Below, piece after piece: positions 13,926 to 37,578 of a stretch of DNA of 64,000 nucleotides. A model generated the notes under the pieces. The model made no database searches and was not told the DNA's origin. It saw only the letters and a list, made by a program, of their open reading frames with translations. The stretch comes from a virus, in IMG/VR virus record IMGVR_UViG_3300025093_000012, positions 48,838 through 112,837 of that record; one strand, 5' to 3'. Positions within the stretch are counted from its first letter, which is position 1. Every line of letters starts with the position of its first letter. The translations under genes were made by a program, and so were the position numbers.

Positions 13926-16900
13926 CTATTTACCCATTGGCAAGAAAAAATCTCTTAATTCTGCTCCTTTTCTAAGGATTCTCATTTCTCTTCCCATCTT
14001 ACCTTGATATCCTGCATTTGTAATTACATCTTGCTGCTGTCTACCAAATGTAGTTGGTGCAGTTTGATTAGGCATTTTAAATACAGGCCACTGATCCTGT
14101 GGTACACCTGCAGCATCTAGCTTTTCTGTAATAGCAACATACTGATCAACTGCATCTTGTGGATCTTTATAATTAGGATCTGCATAAAATGCTTTAGGAT
14201 CTGTAATATTAATTATACCTCCTGACGCTGGATCAATATCAAACTGAGGATATATACTATTTAGATTTGCTGTATTAGCTCTATTAGTATATGCATTCTG
14301 AAGCTGTGCAGTAATAGCTGCATTTGCTTTTCTCATTGCATTATCATAGTTCTCATCAGTTAGTACAGTGTTATCATATAACTGTTTCTTTTCGTTATTA
14401 TTAAGAAGTTGAGTTTTATACTCTAGCTCTGCATTTTTAACACCTATAGTATTAGCTAGTTGTACATTATCATTTTGAACTTTATTTATTGTATCAGCAA
14501 TAGCTGTATTAGCTTTACCTTGTGCTGCTAGTGCAGCAGACATAGCTCTACCAGAACCAGATCCAAATGCTTTAGCTACTTCTGCAGCTGTAGCTGCTTG
14601 CTCACCTATAGCTGCAATCTCTCTTGTAGGATCTTTAAATACTCCGTCAATTTGTGGTTGGTCATAAAATGGAGCCCAAGGATAACGTTTTTGCAAACTC
14701 AGTTTAGCATCTCTTGCGTTAGCTAAACCTAGTTCATCTTGTAACCAAAATGGAGTATCTTTTTTCTCACCTACTTTTTCTTGAACATCAATTTCCTTAT
14801 CACACTCACAACCAGATGCAGGTGTAGTTACATTTCCTTCAGCATCTTTTACAGCTGCAGTATAAGGTGTCCAAGTTCCTCCAGCTTCAGTACATGCTGC
14901 TTGCATCTCTTCTGCATTTGCACAAGGCACAGCATCCACGGCTTCTGTAGTTTCTACAGTACCCATCAACTCTCTGTTAGTGGTATTACCCCAAAAACCA
15001 TCATCTCCTGAAACCATTCCATCAAATAGTTTATCATCGGCAACACCAGTATTAAAGTACTCTTGAGTTTTATCATCTCCTGCTTCAACATACTTACCAG
15101 CAATAAAACCTGCTTGAGCATGACTAATCATATCCTTATCTAATGGAGTAAAGCCTTGCTCTTCTGCAGCTTGGTTATATCTCCAGTTAGCTCCTTTATT
15201 CTCTCCCTTCTTGTAGTACTTTCCGTCTTTTGCTTTTGTACAACCATCACCTGGACCATCACATGGAATCATTTCAAATGTTCTATCCCAATCTGGTAAA
15301 CTCAAGTATTCTTGATCATACTCTTCATTAAACTTTCTATTCTGAGTTTGGAACTCTACAGTAACATCTACAAATTCTTCTAATGGTAAAACATCTTTAC
15401 CCTGCTCTTCTCTATATTTTTTGTAGAATTCATACATCTTCTTTTGATAGTCTTCATCTACTTTAAAGTTTTCTATCCAATCTTCTTTACCACTTGTAGT
15501 ATATGTGGTTGTAGACTCTTGAGCCTCAGTGTCTACTCTTGATTCATTTATATCATCTAACCTTTTTCGTTCTGCTTCTGTTATTGATCCACTCATTATC
15601 TCTTGAAAGAATTGAGGATTCTTTCTTTTGATTCTTCTTAAATCTTTTGCACTATATTCTACACCATCATAAACAACCCCCATAGATTCTTTCCCTCTTT
15701 GAGCAACAGGTAATCCAGGTTGACCACCATTTAAAAATGACCATTGTGATCCTACATAATATGGGCTGTCAGGACTAACATAATCTAAAGGCACACCTTG
15801 TGTTCTAACTCTATTATTCATAGCCATTTGATCTGACTCATCATCATTAGGTAATCTAAAGTTTCTTGGATCTACATAACCCGTTGGATTACTTTCATTA
15901 GGATTTTCTTGAATGTTATATACATTAGTAATTTGTGGTACATTTGATGATCTATTTGATCCAGTATTTGTTTCATAATCTGGAATTGCATCTTCACCAT
16001 AAATATTCTTATATGCTTGAGTATAACTTGGATCATAGTCACTTGGTGCAGTTCCACCTTCATTTATATGATTTTCCCAAAACTCAACCATTTCAGGATT
16101 AGCTGCACCTGATGCACCTAACATACCCATTTGATCTTCTGGAGAAGGGATCATAGAAGTCATCATAGTATTATAACCATCAATCATATTAGTCATAACA
16201 TTATTATAGTCATCTAACATCATACTCTGATCTGCAATATATTGTTCTAATAACTGTTCTCTTGAAGGTTGAGTAGGATAATTTAATGTACCTGCTACAA
16301 CAGGTTCTGGCTCCATTGGCATAACAACTGCTGTATTATCTGTTTCTGCAACATACTCTGGAATATAATATTGTGCACCTAAATAACCAGCTGTTCTAGT
16401 TATACCTTTTTGTGCTTTAGGTAGTTCTCTACCATACATAGCAAGTAATTTTTCATCTATGCTTGCCTCTTCTGTATTTACAGGACTATCAATCATAGTA
16501 TTGCTTGGTTCACCTTTAATAGTATCTTTAACACCACTTTTAACACCTGTTTTAAATGTATGTGCTAAGGTCTTATTTGCTAATGGTTCTGCTATAGTTT
16601 TTGCAGCAGTTTTGTATCCTGCTTTTATTAGGTTACCCCCTGGGGTTGCTCCTAATATTGCAGATGTACCAGCAGTAGCAAGTTCCTTTTTCATAGTATC
16701 ATAGTCACCATCTTTATATGCCATATAAGCATCACCTGCATCAATAGCTGCACTACCTAGACTTGCAGCTGTACCAAGAACAGGTACATATGAAGCTTTG
16801 TCTAATACATTTTGAATATCATCTTTATTCTCCATGTATGTTTCAGTAGTTGATTTTCCTTTATAGTCAGGAATAAATCCTTGTTCTCCTTTAAGGTAAC

Positions 16901-18554
16901 CTGCAAAATCAAAACCAAACTGAGCTTTCTTCATTCCTTGCATTTCATCCTCATGCAAGTAGCCCATTTCTTTCATACGTAAATGATCTTCATATGTCTC
17001 AGCCATATAACCTTTTCCAGTTTCTGGATCATACATCATATGTGGCTCAAAAGATTCTTCTCCACCCTCTTCTCTTCTATTAAGATACCCTAGATTAATA
17101 TCAAAGTTTCTTTGAAGTTTTCTACCAAACTTGGTGTTATCTAGCAATGCATTAAGACCATAGTTAATTAAGCCTCCTTTTATTCCATCTTTTAATCCTT
17201 GCTTTAAACCAGTACCTAAATCTTGTCTATATTGCTCTTTAGTTTTTCCACCCACTTGACCCATATAGTAATCAGGACTCATACCAAAATACTCTCCAGC
17301 AAAAAAGTCTTGTTTATTTGGAGTAAAGTTTTCAAACTGTGGGCATGTATTATTCTCACAATAGTCTACATAACTTGTATAACCACCCGCATTACCAGGT
17401 CTAGCAAACATTGCATCCATGTTAGTATTATACAATTCCCATGCATCATTTTTTCTGTTATACTGAGTAATCATTTGAGGAACTGTTCTTGCCAAAATAC
17501 TACCAAGTGCAGTTGTACCTGCTACTTTTAAAGATTGATTTAAGTTAGACTTACCTCTGTTAGAACCCATGTATCCAAACTGTGCTTTTGGTAACAGATT
17601 AGATAACTGACCTCCACGTTTAGCCATAGCAGGTTGTTGCATAGAAGGCTGCATAGAAGTCATCATATTAGGTTGCATGTTTGGCTGCATGTTAGGTTGT
17701 TGCATAGCCATCATCTCCTGTCCAGGAGCTGGTGCAGGCATACCTGATTGAGAAGGAGGAAGAACCTGAGCTTGTTCAAGCTGAGCTTGTTCTTGTTCTC
17801 TACGTTGTTGCTCTTCCATCATTTTTTGTGCAGTAAGTATTTGCATTCTGCTTTCAAAAGGAAGTTGTACTAACATCTTCAACTCTGCTTCTTTTCTAGA
17901 AATATTTTCTACTTGTTGTGAGAACTGAATAGGATCAATATTCTTTTCTGTTAAATATGGATATGCAGCTAATGGTACACCATCTTCAAACTCTTTCTTT
18001 GCTTCTTGAAGAAATGCTAGTTGAGATAAAGACCTTTTATTTTTACCCAACATATACTCTGCAGTATCTCTTGTAATAAAATCAGACTGCTCATCATCTA
18101 ATAAACCAATAAAATTATTAAGTTGATATTTTTTAGATATTTCTGCTGGTGTTAATTTCTTTCTTGATTCTAACCCCATCTCTGCAAGTTCATACTTACT
18201 AAACTTCATTGCAGATGTGTCAGAATAAATAAATGATTGAGGTGGTAAATTTAATGGCGTACCCCCTTGATGATGTCTTTTACCTTGAATATCATATAAC
18301 TCAAAGTTACCATCATTATTAAGATCAGTGAGGACGGTTTCACCTTTCTCAGCTTCTAGATTAGCTTCTTCCCTAGGAACAGGATTAATAGAATAATTTA
18401 CTTTAGATGTAGGATCAGGACTAGAAAATGGATCTAAGTGAGGATATGTCACTAATCCATAATTAGATTGATCACCTGTAGTACCACCGTCCTGGTACAC
18501 TTTACCTTCTCTTATAGAAAAGCCTTTTGGTAATTTTTTAATTTTTACTTTCAT
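13926..18554 (-). CDS. Modular virion cargo protein (1542 aa) with repeated AQxG/xGG linkers
   Basis: N-terminal EAEKGE...GKRHHQGG domain, Q/M-rich linker, several small modules and a helical C-terminus. Lies in the cargo-gene region. Confidence 0.65.
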   Translation of the reverse strand: MKVKIKKLPKGFSIREGKVYQDGGTTGDQSNYGLVTYPHLDPFSSPDPTSKVNYSINPVPREEANLEAEKGETVLTDLNNDGNFELYDIQGKRHHQGGTPLNLPPQSFIYSDTSAMKFSKYELAEMGLESRKKLTPAEISKKYQLNNFIGLLDDEQSDFITRDTAEYMLGKNKRSLSQLAFLQEAKKEFEDGVPLAAYPYLTEKNIDPIQFSQQVENISRKEAELKMLVQLPFESRMQILTAQKMMEEQQRREQEQAQLEQAQVLPPSQSGMPAPAPGQEMMAMQQPNMQPNMQPNMMTSMQPSMQQPAMAKRGGQLSNLLPKAQFGYMGSNRGKSNLNQSLKVAGTTALGSILARTVPQMITQYNRKNDAWELYNTNMDAMFARPGNAGGYTSYVDYCENNTCPQFENFTPNKQDFFAGEYFGMSPDYYMGQVGGKTKEQYRQDLGTGLKQGLKDGIKGGLINYGLNALLDNTKFGRKLQRNFDINLGYLNRREEGGEESFEPHMMYDPETGKGYMAETYEDHLRMKEMGYLHEDEMQGMKKAQFGFDFAGYLKGEQGFIPDYKGKSTTETYMENKDDIQNVLDKASYVPVLGTAASLGSAAIDAGDAYMAYKDGDYDTMKKELATAGTSAILGATPGGNLIKAGYKTAAKTIAEPLANKTLAHTFKTGVKSGVKDTIKGEPSNTMIDSPVNTEEASIDEKLLAMYGRELPKAQKGITRTAGYLGAQYYIPEYVAETDNTAVVMPMEPEPVVAGTLNYPTQPSREQLLEQYIADQSMMLDDYNNVMTNMIDGYNTMMTSMIPSPEDQMGMLGASGAANPEMVEFWENHINEGGTAPSDYDPSYTQAYKNIYGEDAIPDYETNTGSNRSSNVPQITNVYNIQENPNESNPTGYVDPRNFRLPNDDESDQMAMNNRVRTQGVPLDYVSPDSPYYVGSQWSFLNGGQPGLPVAQRGKESMGVVYDGVEYSAKDLRRIKRKNPQFFQEIMSGSITEAERKRLDDINESRVDTEAQESTTTYTTSGKEDWIENFKVDEDYQKKMYEFYKKYREEQGKDVLPLEEFVDVTVEFQTQNRKFNEEYDQEYLSLPDWDRTFEMIPCDGPGDGCTKAKDGKYYKKGENKGANWRYNQAAEEQGFTPLDKDMISHAQAGFIAGKYVEAGDDKTQEYFNTGVADDKLFDGMVSGDDGFWGNTTNRELMGTVETTEAVDAVPCANAEEMQAACTEAGGTWTPYTAAVKDAEGNVTTPASGCECDKEIDVQEKVGEKKDTPFWLQDELGLANARDAKLSLQKRYPWAPFYDQPQIDGVFKDPTREIAAIGEQAATAAEVAKAFGSGSGRAMSAALAAQGKANTAIADTINKVQNDNVQLANTIGVKNAELEYKTQLLNNNEKKQLYDNTVLTDENYDNAMRKANAAITAQLQNAYTNRANTANLNSIYPQFDIDPASGGIINITDPKAFYADPNYKDPQDAVDQYVAITEKLDAAGVPQDQWPVFKMPNQTAPTTFGRQQQDVITNAGYQGKMGREMRILRKGAELRDFFLPMGK
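17630..17705 (-). repeat. Degenerate 12-bp tandem repeat encoding (QPNM)n
   Basis: Protein reads MQQPNMQPNMQPNMMTSMQPSMQQP; plus strand shows ggttgcatgttt-ggctgcatgtta-ggttgttgcat. Confidence 0.7.
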
Positions 18555-18556
18555 AA

Positions 18557-21500
18557 TTATACTATTTGTATCTCTGCTCCTGCAGCTACTAGTTGTTTAT
18601 ATGTATTCATATCTATTTCTATCTCTCCACCTGGTTTATAAAAACCTCCTCCAAATTGAGCTGATTGAGTTGTACCAACAACAACCTTATCATCTGGTCT
18701 AAATATACCAGAGTTAGGATCATAGTTACCTTTGTTTCCCGTTATATCAGCATCAGTTGCAGCAAACATATTATCAGCTAAAAATGCATTATTCATTATA
18801 TTAGCTCTTTGCCTATTCTCATTAAATTGTCTAGCTATTCTAGTAACAGGTTTTGCCACATCAATTAGCATATCACTTACCTTGGTATATGTTTGAACTG
18901 GTTTACTATCAGCTACTCTTAACATAGTGTTATATGCTCTAGTTCCAAAACCAGGTCTTTCACTAGAAGCATCTATTAAATCAGCTCTATCAGATCTCAT
19001 CTGAGCTTCTTCTGCCTCTGCAGCATCATAAGCATCCATAGCTGCAAGATCACCATCAAAACCTAATTCCATAGATCTATCATATCTATCTAAGTTTTCT
19101 TGTGTACCTGTATATTCAGGCATTGAATCAACTTGACTTTGTAAGTTAGCTGATGTTTCATCTACCACATCTTGCATTTGTTCTGATGACATAAGAACTT
19201 GCCCATCAGATGTAACCCTACCTTGTCCCTCAGCTATAGTATAGTCCATCATATCTTTTGCTTGAAGAAACTCTTCACTAGGTTCAAAAGAAACATTAGG
19301 TGTCTGAAGCGGATTAGTATTTACTTGATTCATCATTAATGATGGATTCTCTAATCTTTTATTCATATCAGCAGTAAATGCTTGGAACTCATCTAATGAT
19401 CTATTAACAGATTGATTCATTGCATACAACCTAGCATTTGACATAGGTGTATATGTGTCATCTGTTGATTGGCTAAACAATACATTTTGATTTAAGAAGC
19501 CAGCTGGATTATTTAATGTAGGACCTGATGTAAAGAAAGGTGTAGATTGATTTCCTGATAAACTATACCCAGAGAATGTTGGTTGTAAAGTACCTTGTGT
19601 AGGAGCACCAAATTCACCTAATGATTGATACTTTGTTAAACTGCCACCCATCTTTTTTGATGTATCACCTTGTTTTTCTGCTTCATCATATGCTGCGTCT
19701 AGTTTAGCTTTATATGCTTTGTAACCAGGAGTTACATCAGGCAAGCTTTCTACAAAATCTGAATAAGATTTAGTATCACGAACATTAGTATTATCATGTC
19801 TGTATCCATACTTTGTACCTAATCCCATACCATAAAAAACTATTTCATGATCTTTTTCAGCATCTACATTAACCCTTCTAAATACACCAGAGTTTAAAGT
19901 TTTATCACGGTCAGGATTGTCATGAAAATATTTTAAAGGATACCACCAGTCACGGTCCATTCTTATTTTACCTGCATCAACTAATGCTCCATCCTTATCA
20001 TGAACTCTAAAATAATTAGCTTCTGGATCAAAAGACTCACTTAATAAATCATTTTCAGCCCTTACCATATCTACAGTAGGACGTTTCATTTTAGGCATTG
20101 GTCCATCATACAATGGTGGTGCTATAGGTACAGCATTTGTTGTGAATACATCATACACGTTTCCAGTTACATCAGGTGTAGCTGCTACTGCATCAGTATA
20201 TTCATAGGCATCAAGCGCAATACCAGGTGTACCATAAGCAGTATTATAAACTATTGTAGAATCACTAAGCATAGGAGTAATAGTTCTAGCAAAACCAGGC
20301 GGTCTTGTAAGACTAAATCCTACACTAACAGGATCATTTTCCAAAGCTGTTCTGTTATTGTTAATAAAAGTCTGTGCAGCTCCAGCTGTAACACCACCTG
20401 GAAAAAACATCCATCCTGCCCCAGGTGTTCCTGCTGATCCTTCTTCTAAAACTACTTGCCTATTTCTCATTGATTGATTATAATCATTGATAGTAGGTCT
20501 GTCCCTAAATGTTTCTCTAGTTGTTACAAACTTATTTGTATTAGGATTATATAAATCTTCAATAGTTACACCTTTTATACCTGGCACATCAATCATTTCT
20601 ACCTCACCTCTGTTCTGATAATAAGGTAATGAGCCACCATATCTTGCTAAATCATTTGGCATTGGTGGAAGATCCTCTTGTCCTGGTTCATAATCCATCT
20701 CACTGTTTGTAGGAGTTATAACAGGAACTGGAACAGGATTTAATTGTGGTTGTGGTATATTAGTTGGAATAGGTTGAACTGATCTTGATGGAATCTGCAC
20801 AGGTTGATTCATAGGATTCTTCATACTTCTTTGCCACTCAGGTGAATCATCTACACCAGTTGGACGTGAACCTTTATCAAAGTCCTTATCTACAAATATA
20901 CCATCCACACCATCTAACTGAACATTACCAGGTCCTGTAACAAGATAATCATAAGGCACAGAAGAACCATCAGGTCTTTGTGTGTAACCTAAATATTCTG
21001 CATCTGAATATTTTTGTTCTAATAAATCTCCTTGCCCTGGACCTTTTCTGCCAAATGTTTCACCTCTACCTGTTAGATTAAAAAGATCCATATCAAAATC
21101 TTTAACCTTCCCATACATATCTGGTCTGTTCTGTCTTCTTGCCTCAAGGAAGTTCATCATCTCCTCCTCTTGCACTTGTTCCTCATCTTTCAGATATTTA
21201 CCAGGATTATATCCCATTCTGAAGTAGTCTTCCTTGTCATAGTATAGATCTTCACCAGTTGGGTTTCTAACAGTAAACTTCATGTAATCTGACTTAGTGC
21301 CAGGATCATAATAGTTTTCACCTTTAAAACTCTTTACCCCTCTCCCAATAGCATCTGCTAATTCTAAAAATGGATTATCCCCTAAACCAGAAAGTATAGT
21401 TGCTTGATCAGGATTCCTAAATTTATTATTAAAAGCATCTATTTTTTGATTTGCATCATCTTCATCTTCAGCCTCTTCTGTAATATCTGTAACATCTGTA

Positions 21501-21910
21501 TCTTCTGTCTCTTCTTCAGAATCAAATTTTGCATTAAATTCTTCTTCACTTTCACCTTCTGATCTAGTTGTATATACTTTACCATTCCAAGTAAAAGTTT
21601 TTTCACCTGCACTTTTAGCTGAGCTAAAGGCTTGACTAAATGATAAACCTGTTGCAGGATCAACACCACTTTGATTATCATCCTTACCTAGGGTATTCCA
21701 ATTGCCCTCCATATCTACAACAGCAGTTTGTGATACACCATTTGCATCAGTCCACATTGCTATACCATTCTCTATGACGGCATTATCTGGAACACCATTA
21801 CCATCAGAATCAGTTAAGTCAACTTCACTAGATCCTTCATCACCTTGAAATATAGGTAATGAACCACCTAGCTTTGCTAACATTAAATATGGATTGTTGT
21901 AAAAAAACAT
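18557..21910 (-). CDS. Modular virion cargo protein (1117 aa) with repeated xGGSL linkers
   Basis: Long ORF containing LAKLGGSLPIFQG, LARYGGSLPYYQ, KKMGGSLTKYQ and AQFGGGFYKPGGE, an FxxAFxxA..G..FTWNGKVYTT module, and acidic and Pro-rich linkers. Confidence 0.65.
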   Translation of the reverse strand: MFFYNNPYLMLAKLGGSLPIFQGDEGSSEVDLTDSDGNGVPDNAVIENGIAMWTDANGVSQTAVVDMEGNWNTLGKDDNQSGVDPATGLSFSQAFSSAKSAGEKTFTWNGKVYTTRSEGESEEEFNAKFDSEEETEDTDVTDITEEAEDEDDANQKIDAFNNKFRNPDQATILSGLGDNPFLELADAIGRGVKSFKGENYYDPGTKSDYMKFTVRNPTGEDLYYDKEDYFRMGYNPGKYLKDEEQVQEEEMMNFLEARRQNRPDMYGKVKDFDMDLFNLTGRGETFGRKGPGQGDLLEQKYSDAEYLGYTQRPDGSSVPYDYLVTGPGNVQLDGVDGIFVDKDFDKGSRPTGVDDSPEWQRSMKNPMNQPVQIPSRSVQPIPTNIPQPQLNPVPVPVITPTNSEMDYEPGQEDLPPMPNDLARYGGSLPYYQNRGEVEMIDVPGIKGVTIEDLYNPNTNKFVTTRETFRDRPTINDYNQSMRNRQVVLEEGSAGTPGAGWMFFPGGVTAGAAQTFINNNRTALENDPVSVGFSLTRPPGFARTITPMLSDSTIVYNTAYGTPGIALDAYEYTDAVAATPDVTGNVYDVFTTNAVPIAPPLYDGPMPKMKRPTVDMVRAENDLLSESFDPEANYFRVHDKDGALVDAGKIRMDRDWWYPLKYFHDNPDRDKTLNSGVFRRVNVDAEKDHEIVFYGMGLGTKYGYRHDNTNVRDTKSYSDFVESLPDVTPGYKAYKAKLDAAYDEAEKQGDTSKKMGGSLTKYQSLGEFGAPTQGTLQPTFSGYSLSGNQSTPFFTSGPTLNNPAGFLNQNVLFSQSTDDTYTPMSNARLYAMNQSVNRSLDEFQAFTADMNKRLENPSLMMNQVNTNPLQTPNVSFEPSEEFLQAKDMMDYTIAEGQGRVTSDGQVLMSSEQMQDVVDETSANLQSQVDSMPEYTGTQENLDRYDRSMELGFDGDLAAMDAYDAAEAEEAQMRSDRADLIDASSERPGFGTRAYNTMLRVADSKPVQTYTKVSDMLIDVAKPVTRIARQFNENRQRANIMNNAFLADNMFAATDADITGNKGNYDPNSGIFRPDDKVVVGTTQSAQFGGGFYKPGGEIEIDMNTYKQLVAAGAEIQIV

Positions 21911-21929
21911 ATAGTTACAGTTTACTTTA

Positions 21930-21938
21930 ATAATATAC
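21930..21938 (-). promoter_or_regulatory. Putative phage late promoter motif GTATATTAT
   Basis: Intergenic TTTAGTATATTATTAA about 20 nt before the 1117-aa gene; the same motif recurs in five other intergenic gaps. Confidence 0.55.
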
Positions 21939-21957
21939 TAAATTATCAGCAGATATA

Positions 21958-24900
21958 CTAATTATTAGGTGGAGTATTCATTCGGTTCATAACATCTAAA
22001 GCATTCATTTTAGTACCCTTGTAATCATTATAGTACATTCTATTAATCTTATCATATAATTTTTTAGCAGATTTAGATTGTTGAGTATTATCATAAACAC
22101 CACGTACATAGTCATTGTAAAATTGAATTTGATTTTGTAATCCAAATTCACCACCATAAGAAAACATAATAGGACGTAACATAGTTTTAGCAGATCTAGC
22201 CATCATATTTGTAAAAGTATCCCACGCCTCTTCAGTATTATCTTGAAATATCTCCCAATTAGATTTAGGCTCTTCTTTAGTAACAACTTTTTCATCCATG
22301 TTGTCAATGTTAGTTTCACTTAAAGTGACAATAGGTATATGGTTATTAACAAACCTTGCATAATTGTCTGCTTTCTTACCAGGCCTCCAAGTTTTGGCTA
22401 ATGAAGTATAAACATCAAAGTCTTCACTATTTTTATCTTCTCTACTAATTTGTGTTTGGTATCTATTACCTAATATTAATGCTGTAGCTATTGCAGATTT
22501 TTCTGGATCCATTAACTCACTATTATTAATATCAAATTGATGATATTGAGATATTGTATTTTCCCCATCATTATAAGAAAAGACTCTACCTTTAAAATCA
22601 TTTGCTTCAGCTATTTTATACTCGTCAGGAGAAAGTAAATCTATTTCAGCTTGAGATAATTTAGTTTCTATTGGTGTTGTAAAATTAGTTTCAAATCTCT
22701 TATCTGCCTCAGCAAGAAGTTCTCGTTCTCTTGGATCTGTATTACCATCAGCAACTCTTAACTGTGTCCACCCTACACTGCGGTAAGGCTCCTTTCCCTT
22801 TCCTGATATGTTATCATACTTTCTTTCTACAGAACCTGAACTTCCTTTACCAGTTACCGCTTTCCTTATTAATCTACTATAATCTGAAACCCAATTATTT
22901 CTGTCTCCCATACCACTTTCATAACCATATATACCAAATGCAGTAAGTGCTATATCATTATATAAATCACCATCTATATTTAGTATTTCCATCATGTCCT
23001 TTTTATTAGTAGCTAGTGCATTTAAAAAAGGTTTTGTAATTTCATTATATTCTTCAAGTCTATTACCTGCTGTTCCATCTATATAACCACTCTCCTCAGC
23101 AATGTCATTGTTATATTCAAACATTATAGGTTTGTAATTATATAAATTATTTATAGATGTATTTATACCTTGACCACCTTCTATCTCACCAATAACTTCT
23201 CCTTTAGAATTCAACTGATCATATGATGTTTCAGCTTTCTCAATATTTTCTTTAGATGCATACAAATTAAGTTTCCCATTTTCATACACAAAGGCATTAT
23301 CTTTATCTTCAGGTAAGACATACATCATAGTACCCACACCTACATCTGGGTTATCATATAATTCTTGTAAGTCAGTACATTTTCCATTAATACATCCGTT
23401 TGTTAATCTATTGTTGGTTCCGTCATTATCATATAGGTTACTAACTCTACCTCTTGTAACTCCATGAAATGCCATAGATTGACTAATACCATCTTCATTT
23501 TCAAAAGTGAATGAAGGAACATCTGCTCTAGTATCAGCTCCGTATGCTCTACCACCATCAGCTTTTGCAGAAGATATAGTATATACCCCAGCTCCAGTTT
23601 GTTTATTACCACTCTTCCAGTCTACCTTAGTTCTATATCCTGGAACTTTTATAAGCTCATCAATGGTACTAACACCATTATCTTTCATAGCTTCATTAAG
23701 CTCATCCTGAGATAATTGTTTTCCTTTATAGTATACTGCTACTTTAGTTACTGTAGCAGCATCTCCTGTTGCTTGACCAGTTAATACATCATATGATTGT
23801 CTTGGAGTTTCTTCACCTGGATAAAGAAGATGTATCTTACCTTTCTTTTCATCTAAAATTAAATACGCATTAGATGCTGTTCTATTAATAGTAAGTTTCT
23901 GCCCTACTCTTAGATTGTTTTGATTTTGTCTAGATATACCATTATCAGCCATAAGTCTCCCTAGACTAACTCCTTCTTTCTCAGCAATTTTTGTAAGATT
24001 GTCTCCTGCTTTTACTGTATATACTTTTTCTACTTTCTCTTCATCTACACCATACTCATCATTCATACCCTGAACAATAGTTTGAAATTGATCTAACTTA
24101 TTTATTTCTTGTATATTATTCTTTTTACCAGAAACACTACGCCATACACCATTTTCATCTTGTTCTCTTTTTACCCATACTTCATTAACAGGAGTTGTAT
24201 CATTTACAACAACTTCATCTATTGTAGTTATAGGTGATACTGCAGCAGCTTCTTGACTTTTAGTACTTTCAGTTTCTTCATATTGAGAATGTTGAGGAAT
24301 AATCAATTTTTGATTAACTAGTATTAAAGATGGATTAGTAATATTATTTAACTCAGCAATCTCTGCAACAGACACTTTATATCTATTAGCTATTGCACTA
24401 AGTGACTCACCTCTTTTAACTCTGTGTTTTAATACAGGATTGTTTGACTCAGCAATATCTTTACTATTAACGTCAAAAAATACTTGTTCTCCTGGACGGA
24501 TCATACCTTCTCTTCCTCTAAATGTAGGATTCAGATCTACAAGTTCTTTTAATGTAAGACCATTGTCTCTAGCAATTCTACCTAATGTATCTCCTGATTT
24601 AATAGTGTATGAACCACCAACTCTCATTATAACAGGTTCAATTAGTCCACGTTCCTCTAATTCCTTTTTAGCAATAGGAGATATTACACCACCCCTGTTA
24701 TACAAATCAAGTTGTTGCTTGAGTCTATTCATCTTTCTCATAAACTCACCACCACTCTTTTTATCTTCTAATACTCCTTTTCTAAATGTTTCAATATATT
24801 CATCTGGAGTCTTATTAGAATACTCTGCGTTCTCACCATACAATTTTGGGAATACAGTTTCTAATGATTTACCATCTCTAATGTGGTAACCAATATATTC

Positions 24901-27900
24901 TCTTGCTCCTTGTCTACCTAAAAAGTTAGATAATGCAGCAATGTCTAACATTGACATTCCATGATCAACATCTTTGTACTCATTATACACCTCTTCTCCA
25001 GCAAGTAACAATCCTGGAATACCTTCTAATTCACCATAAGCTCTTTTTCTAAATAGATCTTTTTGAAAGTCAGTGTCTTCTGCAAACTCTGCTCTTGTGC
25101 CATCATACTGATCTTTTACCTCACTCCATAACTGACCATATAAACCAGTTGCAGATGATTCAGGATTTAACATTAACACACCATTCAAACTTTCTGTGTG
25201 TCTTATACCACGCTCTAAGTCATCAAAACTTACTGTCTCTTCTCCTTCTTGTGCAGATCTCAAACTGCCTCCACGTTTTTTATTAGTCCAAGATTCTTGG
25301 AATACATACTCTTTAAGTGGAATAGCTCTTACAGAATGTGCATCATGTTCTAATGCTCCTTCAGTCTTATATGTTGCACCTTGATCTCCTGCATGTGAAA
25401 TAAGATCTTTTACATAATTTACTGAAAAAGGAAGTCTTCCCATTTCACGTAACTGTTGTGAGTGAGATAATTCCTCAAGTAAAATATCCATTAAAGCATA
25501 GGGTCCACCTTCCATGTAGTCTTCTGTAATAAATATATTACCTCCAGATGAAGCATCAGTCATAGGATTGACATGAGGAGCAACTCTTGACTCTTGTCCT
25601 GTTAGTCCTGCAGCCACATCCGTAACTTCTTGAAAGCTTGGTGAAAATCCTCCTAAAAATCCAGGTTCATAATCTGCACCTATATTAAGATTAGGTTGTC
25701 CTAGTTGATTCCAAACATCTATAAATCTATCATAAGTACCTTGGTCATATTGATAATCAATACCTTGTTCAAGTAAACCTAATACTCTATTTGTATTTGC
25801 ATCTTCAGTTTGACCATAGTAATCAGTAGTGTATCTTGTACCATCATAAACAAAACTTTGACCTGGTCCAAGATCTTTTCTTGCTTTTCCAAATGCATCA
25901 TCTTTATTAGATGCTTTACTTGTATAATCTTTTGGAGCAGAAATAGCATCAAATTCTCCTGAAAGAAATCCACCAACAGCTGATGCAGCATCTTCATAAC
26001 CTGCACCTCTTGTGTAGTTATATGGATTTGCATATGTTGATGCTAACTTACCTATATCATCATAACCTGTAGCCTCTTCTAATTTATTACTTAAATATTT
26101 ATTTACATCAGAATTTACAAATGCATCTTTAGCTCTATTATATAAAAAAGTCAAACCAAATCCTGTCTGTGCTTTAGGTAAATCACCACCTTCCTGATAA
26201 TACTTATTCATTATATTAATAAAGTTCTGTGGATCTTTAAGATTTAAATACTTACGCATACCAGATAAATCACCAGCTGTTTCAAAATGCTTTAATGTAT
26301 ATGGGTCAGATGGTTTAAGACCAAGTCTTAATCTTTCTTCCATCATTCTAGCTTTAATCTCAGTTGGTTGTGTATAATAACCAAAATCATACCTACCACT
26401 CTTTCCAGATTTACTAGATGATTTTAATAAATCTGTATTTACTAGTCCTTTTAAATCAGATCTTTGTTGTCTGCTTAATCTCCCACTTCCTGCATCCATA
26501 AAATGTGACCACTCATGAATATTTGTACCTTGTGTATTTCCAAAACTGCCAACTCTGTTGGTATAAAATTTATTTCCAAAGTTTCTTCCAGCTGCAGGAT
26601 GAAAATAAATACCTCCTGTATTAAGACTTTTATCTAAATAATTTTTGGTTGCATCAAATCTTCCTTTTAAAGTTCTTGGATAATCGGCAAACATATCTTT
26701 ACCTAATTGTAAGTATGTATTAGAAAATTTATTACCTGGTGCATTAGCAGCAATATCATCTATGCTTGGAAATTTAATATCTGGATACCTACCTAATACT
26801 TGTATACCATCATCTCTTACTGGTCTAGTAATCTTTAGTATATCATCATAACTTTGTCTATAGTTAATCTTATCATGTATAGTAGGTACATAACCTGATT
26901 CTAATGGATTACCTTTTGTAAACATAAAACCAGCAGGTCTATTCTGATTTAAACCTATTCTTAAATTACCTTGATTAAAGTCTCTTGCTAAACGTACCTG
27001 TTCAGTATTTACATATTTTTGATAAGCTGGATCATTTATATAATTCTCTACATATTTAAATGTTCCTTGATCAGTATTTGGTACACCTGATTTTATTTTT
27101 GAACGCTTTATTGCAAGATCAACATCTTTTATAATATTCTTTCCTGCTGTTTTTCCTGTTTGAACAATAGGCTTTCCTGCCTGTACACCTGCTGGAATAA
27201 AAGGTACTGCACCTAATGCATTAAATGCTGCATCAACATACTCTCCTTGTTTTAAATCATCTACAGCAGCATCACCATAACCAAGAAATGCAAATGGATT
27301 TAACACATCAAATGCATAATCATATGGGTTTCTATTTGGTACATCCATAGGAATTCTATCTGGAAGGTCCTGCCCTCTTACTAAATATCCTAATGTTGTC
27401 ATTGGATTTGCTAAATAGCTCATCCCTTTTTCTATTATGGATGGTTCTTCATAAGGTCTTATTTCTCCCTGATCTGGAGGTAAAGGAACTCCTTCCTCTT
27501 CTTGAAGTTGAATATTTGTATCTATTATAGGTGGCATTGCCACTCTTGTATTATCTGAAGGAGCAACATATGGTTCAATACCTAATTGTGCCATAGGCAA
27601 TGATCCACCTTTTTGATTCTTTGGTAATACTAAATACTCAGGACGGTGTGGTTCTCTTCCAAACAACCAGTTGTAATACTCAGCATCATATAACTTTTTT
27701 GTATGTTCTGAAGGTATATAACCGCCATCATCTTGCCAAGTGCCTCCTTGAAATCCATCTACATTATGATAGACAGATTGATTGCTAAATGTAGGATGAT
27801 TAGGTTTCTTCCATTTATCACTACCATGATTATCCTCATCCATTTTTTCAAAGTCACCAGACTTCCAAAAACCTTGTATATCATAAGCACCCATGTCCAT

Positions 27901-28965
27901 CATGATATCTCTACCCTGTCTTGCAGATTCAGACTTAACCCATTCTGTAAACTGTGTTAGCTCATCTTCTGTTAGATCAGTATTATACTTATCACGAAAC
28001 ATCATCTCAGGATCAAAATCACCACCCGCTTGAGCCATAAATAATTCACTCTGTTGAGAATCATCCATAGCAATATTATTTAATAACCAAATAAGATCAT
28101 CTTCTGAGTAGTTTTTTAAAAGTCTATTTTTAAGATAACTACTCTTAGATTTTCTTAATGTTTCTTTATCTATATCCTCTGTACCTGCATCATAAAGACC
28201 TTGTTGAAATAATTCAAACCTAAGAGCATTTAAATCTGATTTATTTTCATCAGGCTCTGTGTCATGACGTGTTTGTCCTTCATAGGTTTGTAGTCTAGAA
28301 ACTAATTCATCTATATCATATTGATTTAATCTATCTCCAGTTTTTCTATTAGGTTTAAAATTTTGTAATTCAGCATGCCCATATTCATGAGCTATTATAG
28401 AACTTCCATCACCATAACCATATTTTTCTGCATCGTCTGAATTATAAATTATAAGGTCATCAGATGGTGAATACATAGAACCATATGCACTATAAGGTTC
28501 ACCTTTATACATTTTTATTAATTGGTCAATAAATCCTGGTGTTCCGCGTTGAACCATATAACCAGTATCAGCTACTTGACTTGCTCTTAAATCTCTCTCA
28601 TCCTCTGGAAAATTATAACCAGATGACTGCAACCTTTCTAAATATTTAGGTGAGTTTATATAATTAAGAGTAAAATCTTTTGCATCACTATTTTGAAATA
28701 CTCTATTTGGATCTTGTGGTTCTAAAGCATCAAATAATTCTCCATAAAAACCTCCACCTCTCTGAACCAACGGAACTTCAAAAACAGAACTACCAGGAAA
28801 TGTATAGTTAGCACCTGGCATCATAACTCTGCTGTTACCTAAATTATCCATACCAAACACAGGAAAGTCTACATCTTTCATAGTTATATTACCTGATGGT
28901 ATTATATTATAAGGATTATTCTTATCCTTACTTGTTCTCTTATATCCGTCTTTACTGTACTTCAT
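21958..28965 (-). CDS. Polyvalent cargo protein (2335 aa): zincin peptidases, lysozyme/SLT-like domains, 3x LysM, L,D-transpeptidase (YkuD-like)
   Basis: HEYGH (28375-28389); HEWSH...PTEIKAR (26503-26517); EELSH...LEHDAH (25462-25476); IRHTES...SSATGLYGQ; LysM repeats YTIKSGDTLGRIA, HRVKRGESLSAIA, YTVKAGDNLTKIA; AFHG...RLTNGCIN; YGYESG...SVGWTQL. Confidence 0.8.
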   Translation of the reverse strand: MKYSKDGYKRTSKDKNNPYNIIPSGNITMKDVDFPVFGMDNLGNSRVMMPGANYTFPGSSVFEVPLVQRGGGFYGELFDALEPQDPNRVFQNSDAKDFTLNYINSPKYLERLQSSGYNFPEDERDLRASQVADTGYMVQRGTPGFIDQLIKMYKGEPYSAYGSMYSPSDDLIIYNSDDAEKYGYGDGSSIIAHEYGHAELQNFKPNRKTGDRLNQYDIDELVSRLQTYEGQTRHDTEPDENKSDLNALRFELFQQGLYDAGTEDIDKETLRKSKSSYLKNRLLKNYSEDDLIWLLNNIAMDDSQQSELFMAQAGGDFDPEMMFRDKYNTDLTEDELTQFTEWVKSESARQGRDIMMDMGAYDIQGFWKSGDFEKMDEDNHGSDKWKKPNHPTFSNQSVYHNVDGFQGGTWQDDGGYIPSEHTKKLYDAEYYNWLFGREPHRPEYLVLPKNQKGGSLPMAQLGIEPYVAPSDNTRVAMPPIIDTNIQLQEEEGVPLPPDQGEIRPYEEPSIIEKGMSYLANPMTTLGYLVRGQDLPDRIPMDVPNRNPYDYAFDVLNPFAFLGYGDAAVDDLKQGEYVDAAFNALGAVPFIPAGVQAGKPIVQTGKTAGKNIIKDVDLAIKRSKIKSGVPNTDQGTFKYVENYINDPAYQKYVNTEQVRLARDFNQGNLRIGLNQNRPAGFMFTKGNPLESGYVPTIHDKINYRQSYDDILKITRPVRDDGIQVLGRYPDIKFPSIDDIAANAPGNKFSNTYLQLGKDMFADYPRTLKGRFDATKNYLDKSLNTGGIYFHPAAGRNFGNKFYTNRVGSFGNTQGTNIHEWSHFMDAGSGRLSRQQRSDLKGLVNTDLLKSSSKSGKSGRYDFGYYTQPTEIKARMMEERLRLGLKPSDPYTLKHFETAGDLSGMRKYLNLKDPQNFINIMNKYYQEGGDLPKAQTGFGLTFLYNRAKDAFVNSDVNKYLSNKLEEATGYDDIGKLASTYANPYNYTRGAGYEDAASAVGGFLSGEFDAISAPKDYTSKASNKDDAFGKARKDLGPGQSFVYDGTRYTTDYYGQTEDANTNRVLGLLEQGIDYQYDQGTYDRFIDVWNQLGQPNLNIGADYEPGFLGGFSPSFQEVTDVAAGLTGQESRVAPHVNPMTDASSGGNIFITEDYMEGGPYALMDILLEELSHSQQLREMGRLPFSVNYVKDLISHAGDQGATYKTEGALEHDAHSVRAIPLKEYVFQESWTNKKRGGSLRSAQEGEETVSFDDLERGIRHTESLNGVLMLNPESSATGLYGQLWSEVKDQYDGTRAEFAEDTDFQKDLFRKRAYGELEGIPGLLLAGEEVYNEYKDVDHGMSMLDIAALSNFLGRQGAREYIGYHIRDGKSLETVFPKLYGENAEYSNKTPDEYIETFRKGVLEDKKSGGEFMRKMNRLKQQLDLYNRGGVISPIAKKELEERGLIEPVIMRVGGSYTIKSGDTLGRIARDNGLTLKELVDLNPTFRGREGMIRPGEQVFFDVNSKDIAESNNPVLKHRVKRGESLSAIANRYKVSVAEIAELNNITNPSLILVNQKLIIPQHSQYEETESTKSQEAAAVSPITTIDEVVVNDTTPVNEVWVKREQDENGVWRSVSGKKNNIQEINKLDQFQTIVQGMNDEYGVDEEKVEKVYTVKAGDNLTKIAEKEGVSLGRLMADNGISRQNQNNLRVGQKLTINRTASNAYLILDEKKGKIHLLYPGEETPRQSYDVLTGQATGDAATVTKVAVYYKGKQLSQDELNEAMKDNGVSTIDELIKVPGYRTKVDWKSGNKQTGAGVYTISSAKADGGRAYGADTRADVPSFTFENEDGISQSMAFHGVTRGRVSNLYDNDGTNNRLTNGCINGKCTDLQELYDNPDVGVGTMMYVLPEDKDNAFVYENGKLNLYASKENIEKAETSYDQLNSKGEVIGEIEGGQGINTSINNLYNYKPIMFEYNNDIAEESGYIDGTAGNRLEEYNEITKPFLNALATNKKDMMEILNIDGDLYNDIALTAFGIYGYESGMGDRNNWVSDYSRLIRKAVTGKGSSGSVERKYDNISGKGKEPYRSVGWTQLRVADGNTDPRERELLAEADKRFETNFTTPIETKLSQAEIDLLSPDEYKIAEANDFKGRVFSYNDGENTISQYHQFDINNSELMDPEKSAIATALILGNRYQTQISREDKNSEDFDVYTSLAKTWRPGKKADNYARFVNNHIPIVTLSETNIDNMDEKVVTKEEPKSNWEIFQDNTEEAWDTFTNMMARSAKTMLRPIMFSYGGEFGLQNQIQFYNDYVRGVYDNTQQSKSAKKLYDKINRMYYNDYKGTKMNALDVMNRMNTPPNN

Positions 28966-31900
28966 TACCTAAATGATACGTTTATTTTACTATTGTTTAG
29001 TTTCAATATCATCTTTCTATTTCCTGAAACTCTCTTTCTTAATACAACTGCATTCCAGTAGTGTCTAAACTTCTTACGTTGGAAGAATGGTTTGTTTAGA
29101 TCTATGTTAGCTAAGTTTAAATCTCTAATGTATCCGTTAAGTTGAGTTATAAATATTGGCTCACTAACATTAGGATCAAACTCACCTCTATTATTAGTTA
29201 CATCCCAGAATTGATTGAATCTATATTTCTGCTCTTCCTTACTATATAGTATTTGAATATCATTAGGTGTAATCTGTGGATACTGAGTAATTAACGGAGC
29301 ATTGTTTTTAGGTGATAAATTTAATGCTAATAATCCTGATACTTGCTCTGTGTTATGTAGAATTGCTTCATCAAAATTATAATCTAAATCATGGAATCTA
29401 TCACCACAATCATTATCTAGATTACCTCTATATATGTATGACTCTAATTGATACTCTATACTTCTTACTGTATTAACTGTTTGTCCAACAGATTCAATTA
29501 GCTCTACCTCCCATGGATAATCTTCTGTATAGTAGTTTGTATATAAGTCACATCTATCGTTATGTTTCCAGATACCACCTCTCTCATTAATAGAAGGGAT
29601 ACAGCATAAATAATCAAATTGACACATTGTAGGGTCAGGATTAACAAATGCTGGATTACCAATACCTGTATCTTCATTATAATATTCTGCTATACCATTT
29701 GGTATATCATCAGGACATGTTCCCAATTGTTGTAAACTTCCAGGTACATATGAATCTGGTAAACTGTTTTCTATATCACAATCACATTCTATCTTTCTAC
29801 ATATACCATTTTTACGGTCACCTAATTGTTCATTACAATCTAATGGATCAGTTAAAATTTCATATGGTGAATCTATTGATATTCTTTCATAACCTTCAGG
29901 ACATGTGCATGTAATAGTAGCACATATATTATCAGCTAACTCAGCTGAAAATGGTGTGATTTCAAGAGGTGTTAAATCTAATCTTTGGAAATTAGTATTA
30001 TTATTAGTTATTATATCAAACTGAGCAGCAGGTGCAGTATTAGTAGGATGACAAAATATACCCCATGACTCACTATTAATTTCTGCTATTCCTTGATTAA
30101 ATGCATCTATGTTCGGTAATCCAAATACAACATTAGGTAAATCTGTTGGAAAAGAACTTCCTTGAAACTGTGAATAGTATGCTGCTCCTGCAGCATTAGG
30201 ATTATCCCCTGCAGCACCATCAGCAAGTTGAATATGTATCCTTCTATACAATGGGTTTGCTGTTCTATCACCTAATGTAGAATTTGTAACATCAGATAAT
30301 TGTTGTTGACCATTATCAAATGCTTCATAAAAGTCAGTACCTTGAGTAGATGAAGTCATTGCATCTGTTCCCCAGTTTGTACTACCTGTATAGTGTGACA
30401 TTGAGATACTATTGGTATTATAGTTCCCCGACATATCTGGTGTAACATTTGAATATGAAGTTCCCCATTGATTAAGACCTATCTGTGCATTACCTGAATT
30501 CATCTCTGGTGCAAATTCTGCAACAAACTCATCTACAAACTGCTGAAATGAATTAAAGAAACTGCTAGTTGATCCTGAGCGGTCAACACTAATTACTATA
30601 TCTACAAGACACTCTGCTTGATCTGATACAGGAACTGGTAGTTCTTCATCAACAATCACATTACCAGGAACTTCAGTTGTCCCTTGTTGACAACATTCAT
30701 TAGTTACGGGATCATAAGTAAATCCAGGAGGACAAGATGGTATTTCATCTAACTCAATATTCTTTGTTGTAAAGAAATGATTTAAGCTAGGTATTGTTAA
30801 ATCAGGATGCCAGTCATGGAATGAAATCCATGCTTTAGCTTTTGGATCATAACTTACCGTCCAAGAAACATCTTTAAAGTATTGCTCATCATCAATGCTA
30901 ATAGGTATAGTATTATCTATAAATTCTCCAGGTATAACTTCTGTATATATACAAGTTGATGTACCAATAGTATCATTAGCATCTGGGCATAAACCAGTTA
31001 CTGTTGGAACAAAACCATTAGAATCAGGAGGACATTCACAATCATATGTAGTAGTATCTCTTCTACAAACTGGACAATCTTCCGTCCCTCCATCTGTACC
31101 ATCCGTATATTCTGTATATCCTTCATCACATCTAAACCCTGTTGTTCCATTCTCACGTAAGAAGTCATTAACATCAGATGACCATAGTTTTGGTAAGCTT
31201 GCCCATGATGTTGCACTTTGAATATCTAACCAATTATCTACATCAATTACAGCAGCAGCTAAAGCTCCAGGTGTTCCCTGTTGATTCAAACCTGTCATTC
31301 TAAATCTAGTACATCCTTGCTGCAACTCATATCTGTATATCCAAGCTTTTGAATATTGTGATGCATTAGCTGCATCTCCTGCAAGCCAAGCAAAGTTTCC
31401 TCCAGCACCTGTTTGACCAGACCAAATGCCAGCTAATCCAACACCAAATAGTGTATTATCATTTGGTTGAACAACTGTTGACCAAACACCACCAATATTT
31501 TCTTCAAATAAAAATCCATTATCAGCAGCTAATAGTATATGTACAGTTTTAGGTACAGGCACATTAACCTGAAACTCAGCTACTGCAAAATTATTTGGTT
31601 CATTACCTGACCCTCTCATTAATGCATTTACTATACCATTTGTATTATTAGCTGGAGTATTTCTCCACCAAGTATTAGATCCGTTATCTGTTATGTAATG
31701 CCATGTATTTGGATCTGCTTGATTACTAGGCATTCCATCAATTGCTACATCATCAATAACAATTGGCCAGTCTCTACCATATCTACTATTACCATAAGAA
31801 GCTAATCCAGCACTTGTACCCACACCAATTGCAGCACCATACTCATAAGTTGTAGTGCTAGTTAAAATAGGTTCTAGTTCATACTCACCTTTACATAATA

Positions 31901-36645: not shown

Positions 36646-37578
36646 TTATCCTAGTGTAGGATGACTCTTAAACATATTGTAATAATTATGGTACTGTGCT
36701 TTTCTATTAACCTCCCAGATCTTTCTCATTTCTTCAAAGTCAGGAGTATTAATAAATCCTAATGCATTATTTCTTGATGCTCTTAACTTCTGCTGTATCA
36801 AACCTAACTGTTGTCCAACATTTTCACCAGCAAAAACCATATTCTCCAAGATTCTTTCTTTCAATGCATATTCATAATACTCATTACAATAAGGATGATC
36901 TAATACTAATAAATTACCATCACCATCTTCCATAGCACCTTGGTAGCTTATATATACATTACCTGTTTCAAAATTTGTAAGAATATAGTTATCCTTAATT
37001 TCTGCAACGTATCTTGATTGAATATTAACATTTGGACAATCACACTGCACTTTATTAGTTGTACTAAATCTTAAAGGGTGATAGTCTGAATAATGTCTAT
37101 ATTGACCAGCACCCACAAACTGAACAACAATATGTTCATTATATGTTGTAACATCTTTTGATCTACCTCTACCTGATGAAACAGTTGTAGTTTTAGGGCA
37201 TGTTTGTACTACACAAACATCTTTACAATCCGTTGGTGTTACACATTGTGCAGGATCTCCTGGATCTGGAACATACTTAGTATATGTTGTATCAACAGTA
37301 GTACCTGCAGGCATTGTATTATTTACTGAATATGAATTACAACAAAAAGCATAATTTAAATATGCAAAATCAGTAGGTAATTTTGCCTTACCATGTTCAA
37401 TATTTACTACAGTTTCTTTTGTTCTATGTATACGTAAACCTAAATCATAATTAACCCTAGTTGCAACCTTAATAAGTTGCTGTGGTTCAATCATGCCCTC
37501 TAACGCATAAGTTGAAAAATCAATAGAAACATCTTCTAGTAACTGATCAAAGGTTCTATATTTATGTGATACAGCCAT
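36646..37578 (-). CDS. Tail ring / tail tubular protein (310 aa)
   Basis: IEHGKAKLPTDF and ILTNFETGNVYISYQG...DGNLLVLD resemble crAss-like tail tubular proteins; directly upstream of the muzzle gene. Confidence 0.65.
   Translation of the reverse strand: MAVSHKYRTFDQLLEDVSIDFSTYALEGMIEPQQLIKVATRVNYDLGLRIHRTKETVVNIEHGKAKLPTDFAYLNYAFCCNSYSVNNTMPAGTTVDTTYTKYVPDPGDPAQCVTPTDCKDVCVVQTCPKTTTVSSGRGRSKDVTTYNEHIVVQFVGAGQYRHYSDYHPLRFSTTNKVQCDCPNVNIQSRYVAEIKDNYILTNFETGNVYISYQGAMEDGDGNLLVLDHPYCNEYYEYALKERILENMVFAGENVGQQLGLIQQKLRASRNNALGFINTPDFEEMRKIWEVNRKAQYHNYYNMFKSHPTLG

Follow-up and report, generated by a model that had tools for sequence, protein, structure and literature searches.

A degenerate Gly-Gly junction peptide at the module borders of three putative virion cargo proteins of a marine crAss-like phage

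The stretch of DNA analysed here, hereafter the window, occupies the right-hand end (64 kb) of a virus record of 112,837 bp (IMG/VR record IMGVR_UViG_3300025093_000012, positions 48,838 to 112,837), and its source genome is that of a marine crAss-like phage. Three large genes that directly follow the muzzle gene encode proteins of 2335, 1117 and 1542 amino acids (aa), referred to below as proteins 1, 2 and 3, which share a junction peptide of the form [LP]-x-x-[AY]-[KQR]-x-G-G-[SEG]-[LF], often accompanied exactly nine residues later by a second unit, LPKAQxG. Copies of this peptide lie at the borders of modules that are gained, lost and moved among related phages. The products of the three genes are probably virion cargo proteins, modular and polymorphic, of a crassvirus clade that is abundant in the sea, cargo being defined here by gene position and not by family. 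We propose, at a probability of roughly 0.4, that the peptide is a short linear binding motif or docking tag, and that the chain which carries it stays uncut.

Nineteen junction sites, composed of 26 half-units, were counted in the three proteins (nine in protein 1, four in protein 2 and six in protein 3), and 7 of the 19 are tandem pairs. An initial annotation of the window had drawn attention to a recurrent di-glycine motif in these proteins, and all the copies that it listed were present at their places on the minus strand. The frequency expected by chance was evaluated with a weight matrix derived from two cargo proteins and scanned over the third and over the other 95 open reading frames (ORFs) of the genome; this leave-one-out procedure gave an enrichment of 20-50 fold over the rest of the proteome. 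Protein 1 contains nine matches of at least 8 bits (3.87 per 1000 aa), against five in ~30,000 aa elsewhere (0.17 per 1000 aa; Fisher p = 7e-8), while its shuffled versions contained 0.74 matches on average and four at most. The corresponding figures are four matches against two in the other ORFs for protein 2 (p = 2e-5), and two matches of at least 10 bits against none for protein 3 (p = 0.002), so that the motif is indeed commoner than chance, as had been supposed. The accompanying remark that it was unseen in the neighbouring proteins is accurate for the 1140-aa protein, which has no copy, and less so for the muzzle protein, in which one weak match of 8.3 bits was found; the matrix found no copy in the 5029-aa RNA-polymerase-like protein encoded further along. 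Exact 5-mers were not significant (ten recur at least three times in the cargo proteins, and up to eleven do so in shuffles), which identifies the signal as a degenerate motif and not as a repeat. An expectation-maximisation search of the whole proteome did not rank the motif clearly, its output being dominated by Gln-rich low complexity from a tract of the portal protein.

A single unit, [LP]-x-x-[AY]-[KQR]-x-G-G, spans about 8 residues. Among 669 matches in 259 related proteins, exactly nine residues separate 78 of 129 close pairs, so that a tandem pair can be regarded as a single composite element with a length of 17-19 residues; more distant neighbouring copies are separated by a median of 270 aa, which corresponds to the size of a module. 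Among 150 diverse relatives of protein 3, 289 matches were found, against 39 in shuffled sequences. Conservation covers ~15 residues, several of which (L, P, A/Y, L/F, P) are hydrophobic anchors, and extends 6-7 residues on each side of the Gly-Gly with a fixed spacing. The position two before the first Gly is K in 37%, Q in 35% and R in 21% of cases, and the residue after the Gly-Gly is variable (S, E, G, Q, T, D).

Protein 1 is encoded at 21958-28965, on the minus strand like all the large genes of the window and all the junction copies, whose window positions are given below in brackets. It is organised as a conserved N-terminal head of 70 aa, a series of variable cassettes that include two HExxH modules and one EExxH module, a conserved C-terminal half with three LysM domains and a YkuD-like domain, and a tail of 65 aa. 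The head (aa 1-70; 28756-28965) is 81-84% identical in five relatives, in which the remainder is at most 54% identical, absent or unrelated, and it probably interacts with the conserved machinery of the particle. Its end is marked by the first copy, aa 64-73 (28747-28776), and the homology block shared with the five relatives stops at aa 68-77. A tail-protein or zincin-like block recognised by Pfam and PHROGs at aa 93-301 (PHROG 24249), which contains the first HExxH, is followed by the copy at aa 308-317 (28015-28044). Tandem junctions are located at aa 447-465 (27571-27627; 17.6 and 15.9 bits), at aa 920-938 (26152-26208), where the second HExxH module ends, and at aa 1226-1244 (25234-25290), at the start of the conserved C-terminal half, the block shared with four relatives beginning at aa 1214-1222. 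Three single copies (aa 1399-1408, 1419-1428 and 1444-1453; 24607-24771) precede the LysM domains (aa 1452-1697 in Pfam and PHROGs), the last of them abutting the first LysM match at aa 1452, and a final copy at aa 2265-2274 (22144-22173) lies before the conserved tail, where a separate homology block with contig L008 starts at aa 2267. The HExxH strings at aa 193 and 817 are candidate zincins whose fold was not confirmed by AlphaFold2. The proposal that copies fall between recognisable domains has partial support: the zincin-like block, the LysM domains and the YkuD domain were confirmed, the last being borderline here (23.3 bits for a cut-off of 23.4) and clearly above the cut-off in orthologues; the transglycosylase and lysozyme-like labels given to other parts of the protein had no match in Pfam or PHROGs.

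The same arrangement is found in protein 2 (18557-21910), in which a conserved N-terminal block (aa 1-436) and a conserved C-terminal block (aa 752-1117) enclose a variable cassette of 330 aa. A tandem junction at aa 9-27 (21830-21886) follows a leader of 9 aa and is kept in 13 of 17 homologues. The left border of the cassette carries a tandem junction at aa 419-437 (20600-20656), with 17 homology-block ends clustered at aa 437, and the right border another at aa 749-767 (19610-19666), with 17 block starts clustered at aa 752; a double copy at aa 1081-1097 (18620-18670) is then followed by a nearly invariant C-terminal tail of 20 aa.

Protein 3 (13926-18554) begins with a domain of ~220 aa whose family is very large (1551 cluster representatives at E <= 0.001, from 124 to 1761 aa long); this domain always starts directly after a Gly-Gly copy, be it N-terminal or internal. 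In protein 3 this copy is at aa 17-26 (18477-18506), between a leader of 22 aa and the conserved domain. A pair of copies at aa 308-330 (17565-17633) coincides with a homology breakpoint at aa 321. Two further copies, at aa 491-500 (17055-17084; breakpoint at aa 484) and aa 541-550 (16905-16934; breakpoint at aa 539), form the left and right borders of a mini-module of 45 aa, and contig L004 has an insert of 250 aa at the second of these. The remaining motif matches are at aa 711-720 (16395-16424) and aa 948-957 (15684-15713). The mini-module (aa 491-550; 16905-17084), which is rich in His and Met and bracketed by its two copies, shows 49% identity with a portion of a hypothetical protein from the Methylophilales phage Melnitz, where there are no flanking copies; this phage has a betaproteobacterial host and belongs to an unrelated family (Kyanoviridae). 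A separate observation concerns the short region 18489-18622, in which protein 2 ends with 20 almost invariant residues and protein 3 starts with 22 conserved ones; a motif copy bounds each of the two end pieces, and the genes are separated by 2 nt and read in different frames. By pairing, these ends might connect the cargo proteins head to tail.

When the three proteins were compared with their orthologues, 9 of 18 clustered homology breakpoints lay within 15 aa of a motif copy, against 2.1 expected (P = 2e-4). The heavily recurrent breakpoints, namely the two clusters of 17 block ends in protein 2 and those with four or five, are all at copies. Cassettes of 190-330 aa are gained or lost, flanked by one extra copy of the motif: among the 19 database relatives of protein 2, the short orthologues P0004, P0005 and P0014 are devoid of the 330-aa cassette and have a single copy at the joint, where protein 2 has one on each side of it, and relative P0009 has an insert of 190 aa with exactly one additional copy. 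In eight gene-2 orthologues (P0006-P0013), the middle cassette is a homologue of the second HExxH module of protein 1 (aa 573-933), and this homology stops at the motif, at aa 933; these alignments therefore indicate that modules move between paralogous cargo genes. The suggestion that the motif may double as a point of module swapping is in this way corroborated by the comparison of orthologous loci. Single-linkage clustering of the segments between motifs chained them into one large family. Some small proteins of other IMG/VR contigs also carry the motif. A 416-aa ORF of L039 corresponds to a minimal protein 1, with the head, one HExxH module, the tail and motif copies between them, and contigs L046 (4.4 kb) and L061 (7.2 kb) encode very basic proteins of 256-281 aa with 3-5 copies and little else, which may be a minimal carrier of the tag.

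The possibility that the join point is a crossover signal in the DNA itself, which could be read into the initial annotation, did not hold. Among 24 copies, 415 of 858 pairs of identical residues used the same codon, against 391 expected from the codon usage of the genome, and third bases were identical in a proportion of 0.55 among 57 exact copies from other contigs. Since codon choice among the copies is random, it is the peptide, and not the DNA, that is selected. A DNA-level crossover signal is ruled out by these values, and DNA-level conservation that would support homologous exchange, of the kind known for VENN motifs, was not found. Column conservation among close orthologues of protein 2 gave no evidence of selection, with values of 0.72-0.78 in the motif and 0.63-0.90 in its flanks. 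The same figures bear on a further explanation, in which the peptide would be a scar without function, its copies persisting only through recombination within them; module exchange occurs exactly at the copies and codon bias alone yields a fair amount of short DNA identity, but the codon identity is no higher than expected and copies are also kept at joints that are invariant among relatives and at the ends of proteins, and we consider this explanation very improbable.

The distribution of the motif was evaluated with a DNA pattern for GGSLPKAQxG that was left free at all third positions. In IMG/VR the pattern was found in 58 stretches, all in frame within long ORFs and with the expected flanks; the contigs that could be judged are nearly all from crassviruses. 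A crass-type capsid gene was present in 31 of the 45 records with the exact motif, and in 11 of 11 of those that are at least 90% complete. In bacterial and archaeal genomes (596 Gb) the same pattern was matched 24 times, which is about chance level, and most of these matches were in short or wrong-frame ORFs of GC-rich genomes; about two look real, but they sit on low-GC contigs that are probably phage (mis-binned). The motif is specific to phages, and a general bacterial linker is ruled out by the scarcity of plausible matches in cellular genomes. Here and in six related contigs, it is confined to proteins encoded next to the muzzle gene. A search for related loci with protein 3 alone returned no match, and in a crass-like phage of a cyanobacterium the motif is almost absent.

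A looser form of the motif is present in a cultured phage, Cellulophaga phage phi4:1 (NC_021788.1, 20597-49758), in which five [AYF][QK]xGG copies occur in gp040 (895 aa) and gp041 (739 aa), whose genes follow that of a muzzle homologue; six other large proteins of its virion have no copy. Both gp040 and gp041 are annotated as found by tandem mass spectrometry (MS/MS). This phage shares an HExxH module with protein 1, has a protein of 2289 aa that falls in the PHROG family of the muzzle protein of the window, and shows a partial match to the crass-type capsid (33% over aa 62-209, a quarter of the protein). It is classified outside Crassvirales (Lightbulbvirus), and from these similarities it looks like a distant cultured relative of this assemblage. 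No copy was found by the matrix in phi14:2, a phage of the same host species. The protein g070 of phi14:2 (L095:10360-12141) has a different Gly-Gly joint, GG-x-VDPP-[TS]-K, before each of its two HExxH modules, and this joint also occurs once in gp041 of phi4:1; several "dialects" of the joint may exist in crass-like cargo.

The assignment of the genome to the crAss-like phages is substantiated by the presence, in the conserved order, of the genes for the major capsid protein, the two tail ring proteins and the muzzle protein that constitute the virion module of Crassvirales, with Pfam matches to PF23898 (1e-33), PF24228, PF25702 and PF25731 (2e-27). On the minus strand of the window are located genes for the terminase (55562-57760) and the portal (52720-55491), both from PHROGs, for the crass-type major capsid protein (49202-50836; PF23898), and for tail ring protein 2 (37578-38249), tail ring protein 1 (36646-37578) and the muzzle protein (28965-36632), the last three from Pfam and PHROGs. 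The three cargo genes come next, and are followed by the 1140-aa ORF and then by the 5029-aa ORF. Positions 2-10429 of the window are the 3' part of this single frame, which continues upstream to G000:44177; it contains a polymerase motif, DFDID, at aa 3980 (outside the window) and an HExxH at aa 2235 (~3713-3727), and looks like a fusion of a zincin-bearing polymerase-associated protein with the virion RNA polymerase of crass-like phages. In crAss001, the muzzle gene is succeeded by those of the virion cargo proteins C1 and C2 and then by those of polymerase-associated proteins (PMC10172136), and the gene order of the window matches this arrangement. By analogy of gene position, the three proteins are probably carried in the particle, and the MS/MS-based annotation of their positional counterparts in phi4:1 also suggests that they are packaged.

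We propose that the junction peptide would act as a handle at every joint, read by one common partner while the chain remains whole. The most likely partner would be a repeated site inside the particle, on the portal wing or in the tail barrel, by comparison with C1 of crAss001. Each module of a long and largely unfolded chain could be tethered there and then fed out in order, and as each cassette would bring its own copy, a protein of any length would stay manageable. This hypothesis is consistent with the nature of the motif, which is long, held in a rigid register and equipped with several hydrophobic anchors, being longer and more rigid than most protease sites; such length and rigidity are typical of a binding peptide. 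It is also consistent with the disposition of C1 (gp45) in the crAss001 particle. C1 contains four weak copies (7-8 bits) of the form a[FY]GGxL, one of which is placed four residues before a helix bound to the tail barrel (aa 214-245), while another constitutes the first residues (aa 425-430) of the portal-bound domain, which was modelled continuously from aa 425 to 552 (PMC10172136). The Gly-Gly bond of the latter copy (aa 427-428) is therefore intact in the virion. In addition, gels of crAss001 show its giant virion proteins at close to full length, with bands at 150, 270 and >300 kDa (PMC6235969). The confinement of the motif to proteins encoded beside the muzzle gene favours a binding tag as well.

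Several points weigh against the binding tag. AlphaFold2 models of protein 2 (17 homologues; mean predicted local distance difference test score (pLDDT) of 39.8) and of the second HExxH module with its trailing motif (nine sequences; pLDDT 30.0) were too poor to place the motif. The number of copies ranges from 2 to 12 per protein, which would be unexpected if the peptide docked to a symmetric structure, and a copy at both ends of a cassette is also what would be expected of a polyprotein with cleavage sites. The copies in crAss001 are weak and may not be equivalent to the motif, and homology between protein 3 and C1 depends on a language-model lead only (score 0.93, 180 shared features), as BLASTP, hhalign (probability 0.15) and Pfam were all negative and this homology was rejected. 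The Pfam model PF25725, the portal-binding CARG1 domain, had no match in the genome at E <= 10, nor in 34 diverse relatives of protein 3; the model of cargo protein 2, PF25712, likewise had none in the genome at E <= 10. A homologue search with gp45 of crAss001 returned only sequences that were 96-100% identical to it. The broader idea of a general tag that loads cargo into the head, which had been offered in the initial annotation, is unlikely, as the polymerase-like protein of 5029 aa, which would be expected to be packaged by analogy with crAss001, is without a copy.

The strongest competitor of the binding tag, although we regard it as rather unlikely, is a protease processing site. The cargo proteins would then be polyproteins whose modules are released by cleavage at the junction peptide, either in the head or, with greater likelihood, once ejected; a zincin of the cargo acting in trans, or a protease of the host, would do the cutting. 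A half-site stands at each cassette end, so that every joint rebuilds a full site, and proteins 2 and 3 have short conserved leaders before the first copy, as proteins 1 and 2 have short tails after the last one. These leaders and tails resemble the capsid-targeting peptides of T4, which are cut off, and a Gly-Gly core is found in many viral and ubiquitin-like sites. An HExxH occurs in 22 of 70 motif-bearing proteins, and that of the 5029-aa cargo protein (aa 2235) is conserved. In the literature, a conserved zincin-like domain of polymerase-associated crassvirus cargo is a candidate processing enzyme, cleavage of the fused forms being expected, and polyvalent phage proteins are predicted to be self-processed by HExxH-type peptidases (PMC5512222). 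Against cleavage, no Pfam match for C48, C5, S78, ClpP or MPTase-PolyVal was obtained in the genome. The cargo trios of contigs L008 and L009 have 15 and 7 copies, respectively, but no HExxH and no Pfam peptidase, and HExxH is present in only 1 of 150 relatives of protein 3. Conservation over 6-7 residues on both sides in a fixed spacing also argues against a protease site, as do the fused 5029-aa protein, which would be the most expected to be cut and has no copy, and the Gly-Gly of C1 that is intact in the particle.

Several particular forms of processing fare less well. The system of adenovirus and African swine fever virus (ASFV), which the initial annotation had invoked, shares the Gly-Gly core of its Gly-Gly-X sites with the motif but differs in the flanking consensus, the would-be P4 residue being K, Q or R and not the M, I or L of the adenain consensus; no clan-CE protease (PF02902, PF00770) was found in the genome. 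Self-cleavage by acyl shift is ruled out because the residue after the Gly-Gly is no consistent nucleophile. A sortase LPXTG signal was rejected, as there is no Thr and no membrane anchor and the sites are internal; the O-glycosylation sequon of Bacteroidota was likewise discarded, as it needs an Asp before Ser or Thr.

It can also be hypothesised that the copies work as a translocation ratchet, in which a conserved host periplasmic protein would capture each copy at the tail tip, stop the chain from sliding back and pull it out unfolded. Colicins use short Tol and Ton boxes in disordered regions, and the motif would, if this were true, be the phage counterpart of these boxes, with hundreds of kilodaltons pulled out of the particle. 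Copies are indeed spread along the chain at the median spacing mentioned above, they are present only in proteins that have cell-wall modules and are encoded next to the muzzle gene, and a cassette that is added needs a copy of its own. Very divergent particles moreover have the strict form in common (the capsid of phi4:1 matching at 33% identity over a quarter of the protein), and the near absence of the motif from the crass-like phage of a cyanobacterium points in the same direction. However, phi14:2 infects the same host species as phi4:1 without a copy found by the matrix; we consider a ratchet improbable. Improbable to a greater degree is a passive hinge or folding insulator, a break rich in Gly and Pro that would let the modules unfold and refold separately in the tail without a specific partner. 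The motif does contain Gly-Gly and Pro, and all four copies of protein 2 are in predicted coil with pLDDT <50, which is weak support since most of the model is poor; but a hinge needs no fixed sequence, whereas thousands of divergent proteins retain L, P, K, A/Y and Q together with the exact spacing of nine residues.

Modular polyvalent phage proteins, crassvirus cargo proteins and the junction motifs of polymorphic toxins are already known, and the cargo described here has features of each. Its closest counterpart by position is C1 of crAss001 (gp45; PF25725), also encoded directly after the muzzle, a virion cargo protein with a long, partly disordered chain of which short segments are docked on the portal and tail barrel (PMC10172136). 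Two of the four copies in C1 are at the start of docked segments; unlike the proteins of the window, C1 has 842 aa, no enzyme modules and no strict LPKAQxG half, and no motif is described in the paper. Like polyvalent proteins (PMC5512222), the proteins of the window combine unrelated domains in one delivered polypeptide, as with the three LysM domains, the YkuD-like domain and the HExxH-bearing PHROG 24249 block of protein 1, and those proteins likewise have frequent HExxH peptidase modules and extensive mosaicism. Judged by LysM and YkuD, the target of the modules here seems to be the cell envelope, whereas polyvalent ones are aimed at nucleic acids, and the polyvalent-type zincin-like peptidase PF18818 had no match in the genome at E <= 1. 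The polyvalent-protein survey names no shared junction peptide and the word "linker" is absent from it (PMC5512222).

The second comparison is with toxins. In polymorphic toxins, a short conserved peptide (VENN of CdiA, pre-toxin motifs) stands at the border of the constant and exchangeable parts and is the point of swapping. Here too a conserved peptide marks the border of exchangeable cassettes and the place where they are swapped. Polymorphic toxins have one junction each, and DNA homology helps their exchange, in contrast to up to 12 junctions per protein and no DNA-level conservation here; nor are immunity genes present. MARTX toxins contain their own cysteine protease domain, which cuts after Leu in loose linkers. 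They resemble the cargo in being strings of effector modules in one giant delivered protein, with module sets that differ between strains, but no such cysteine protease domain or site was found here.

A shared junction peptide in crassvirus cargo is unmentioned in both the crAss001 atlas and the polyvalent-protein survey, and a full-text literature search for LPKAQ gave no relevant paper. Crassviruses pack and inject megadaltons of protein, and a peptide at every module border offers a concrete handle on how the chain is organised and threaded. The motif occurs in thousands of marine crassvirus proteins, where it provides a rule for dividing giant orphan proteins into their modules and for tracing how these are exchanged among phages; as a peptide, it can be mutated, synthesised, used in pull-downs and searched for in proteomes. 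A cultured system is at hand in Cellulophaga baltica phage phi4:1, with its five copies in two virion proteins confirmed by mass spectrometry.

Two observations concern other genes of the window. The portal protein, which in this clade has ~6000 database relatives, contains near its C-terminal end the Gln-rich tract mentioned above (aa 774-800; window 53092-53172), and this tract is largely kept in 22 aligned relatives. A gene that matches a DNA-repair exonuclease family (PHROG 704, 5e-44) is located among the tail genes at 38823-40004, and a metallophosphatase gene is found in a similar position in phi14:2.

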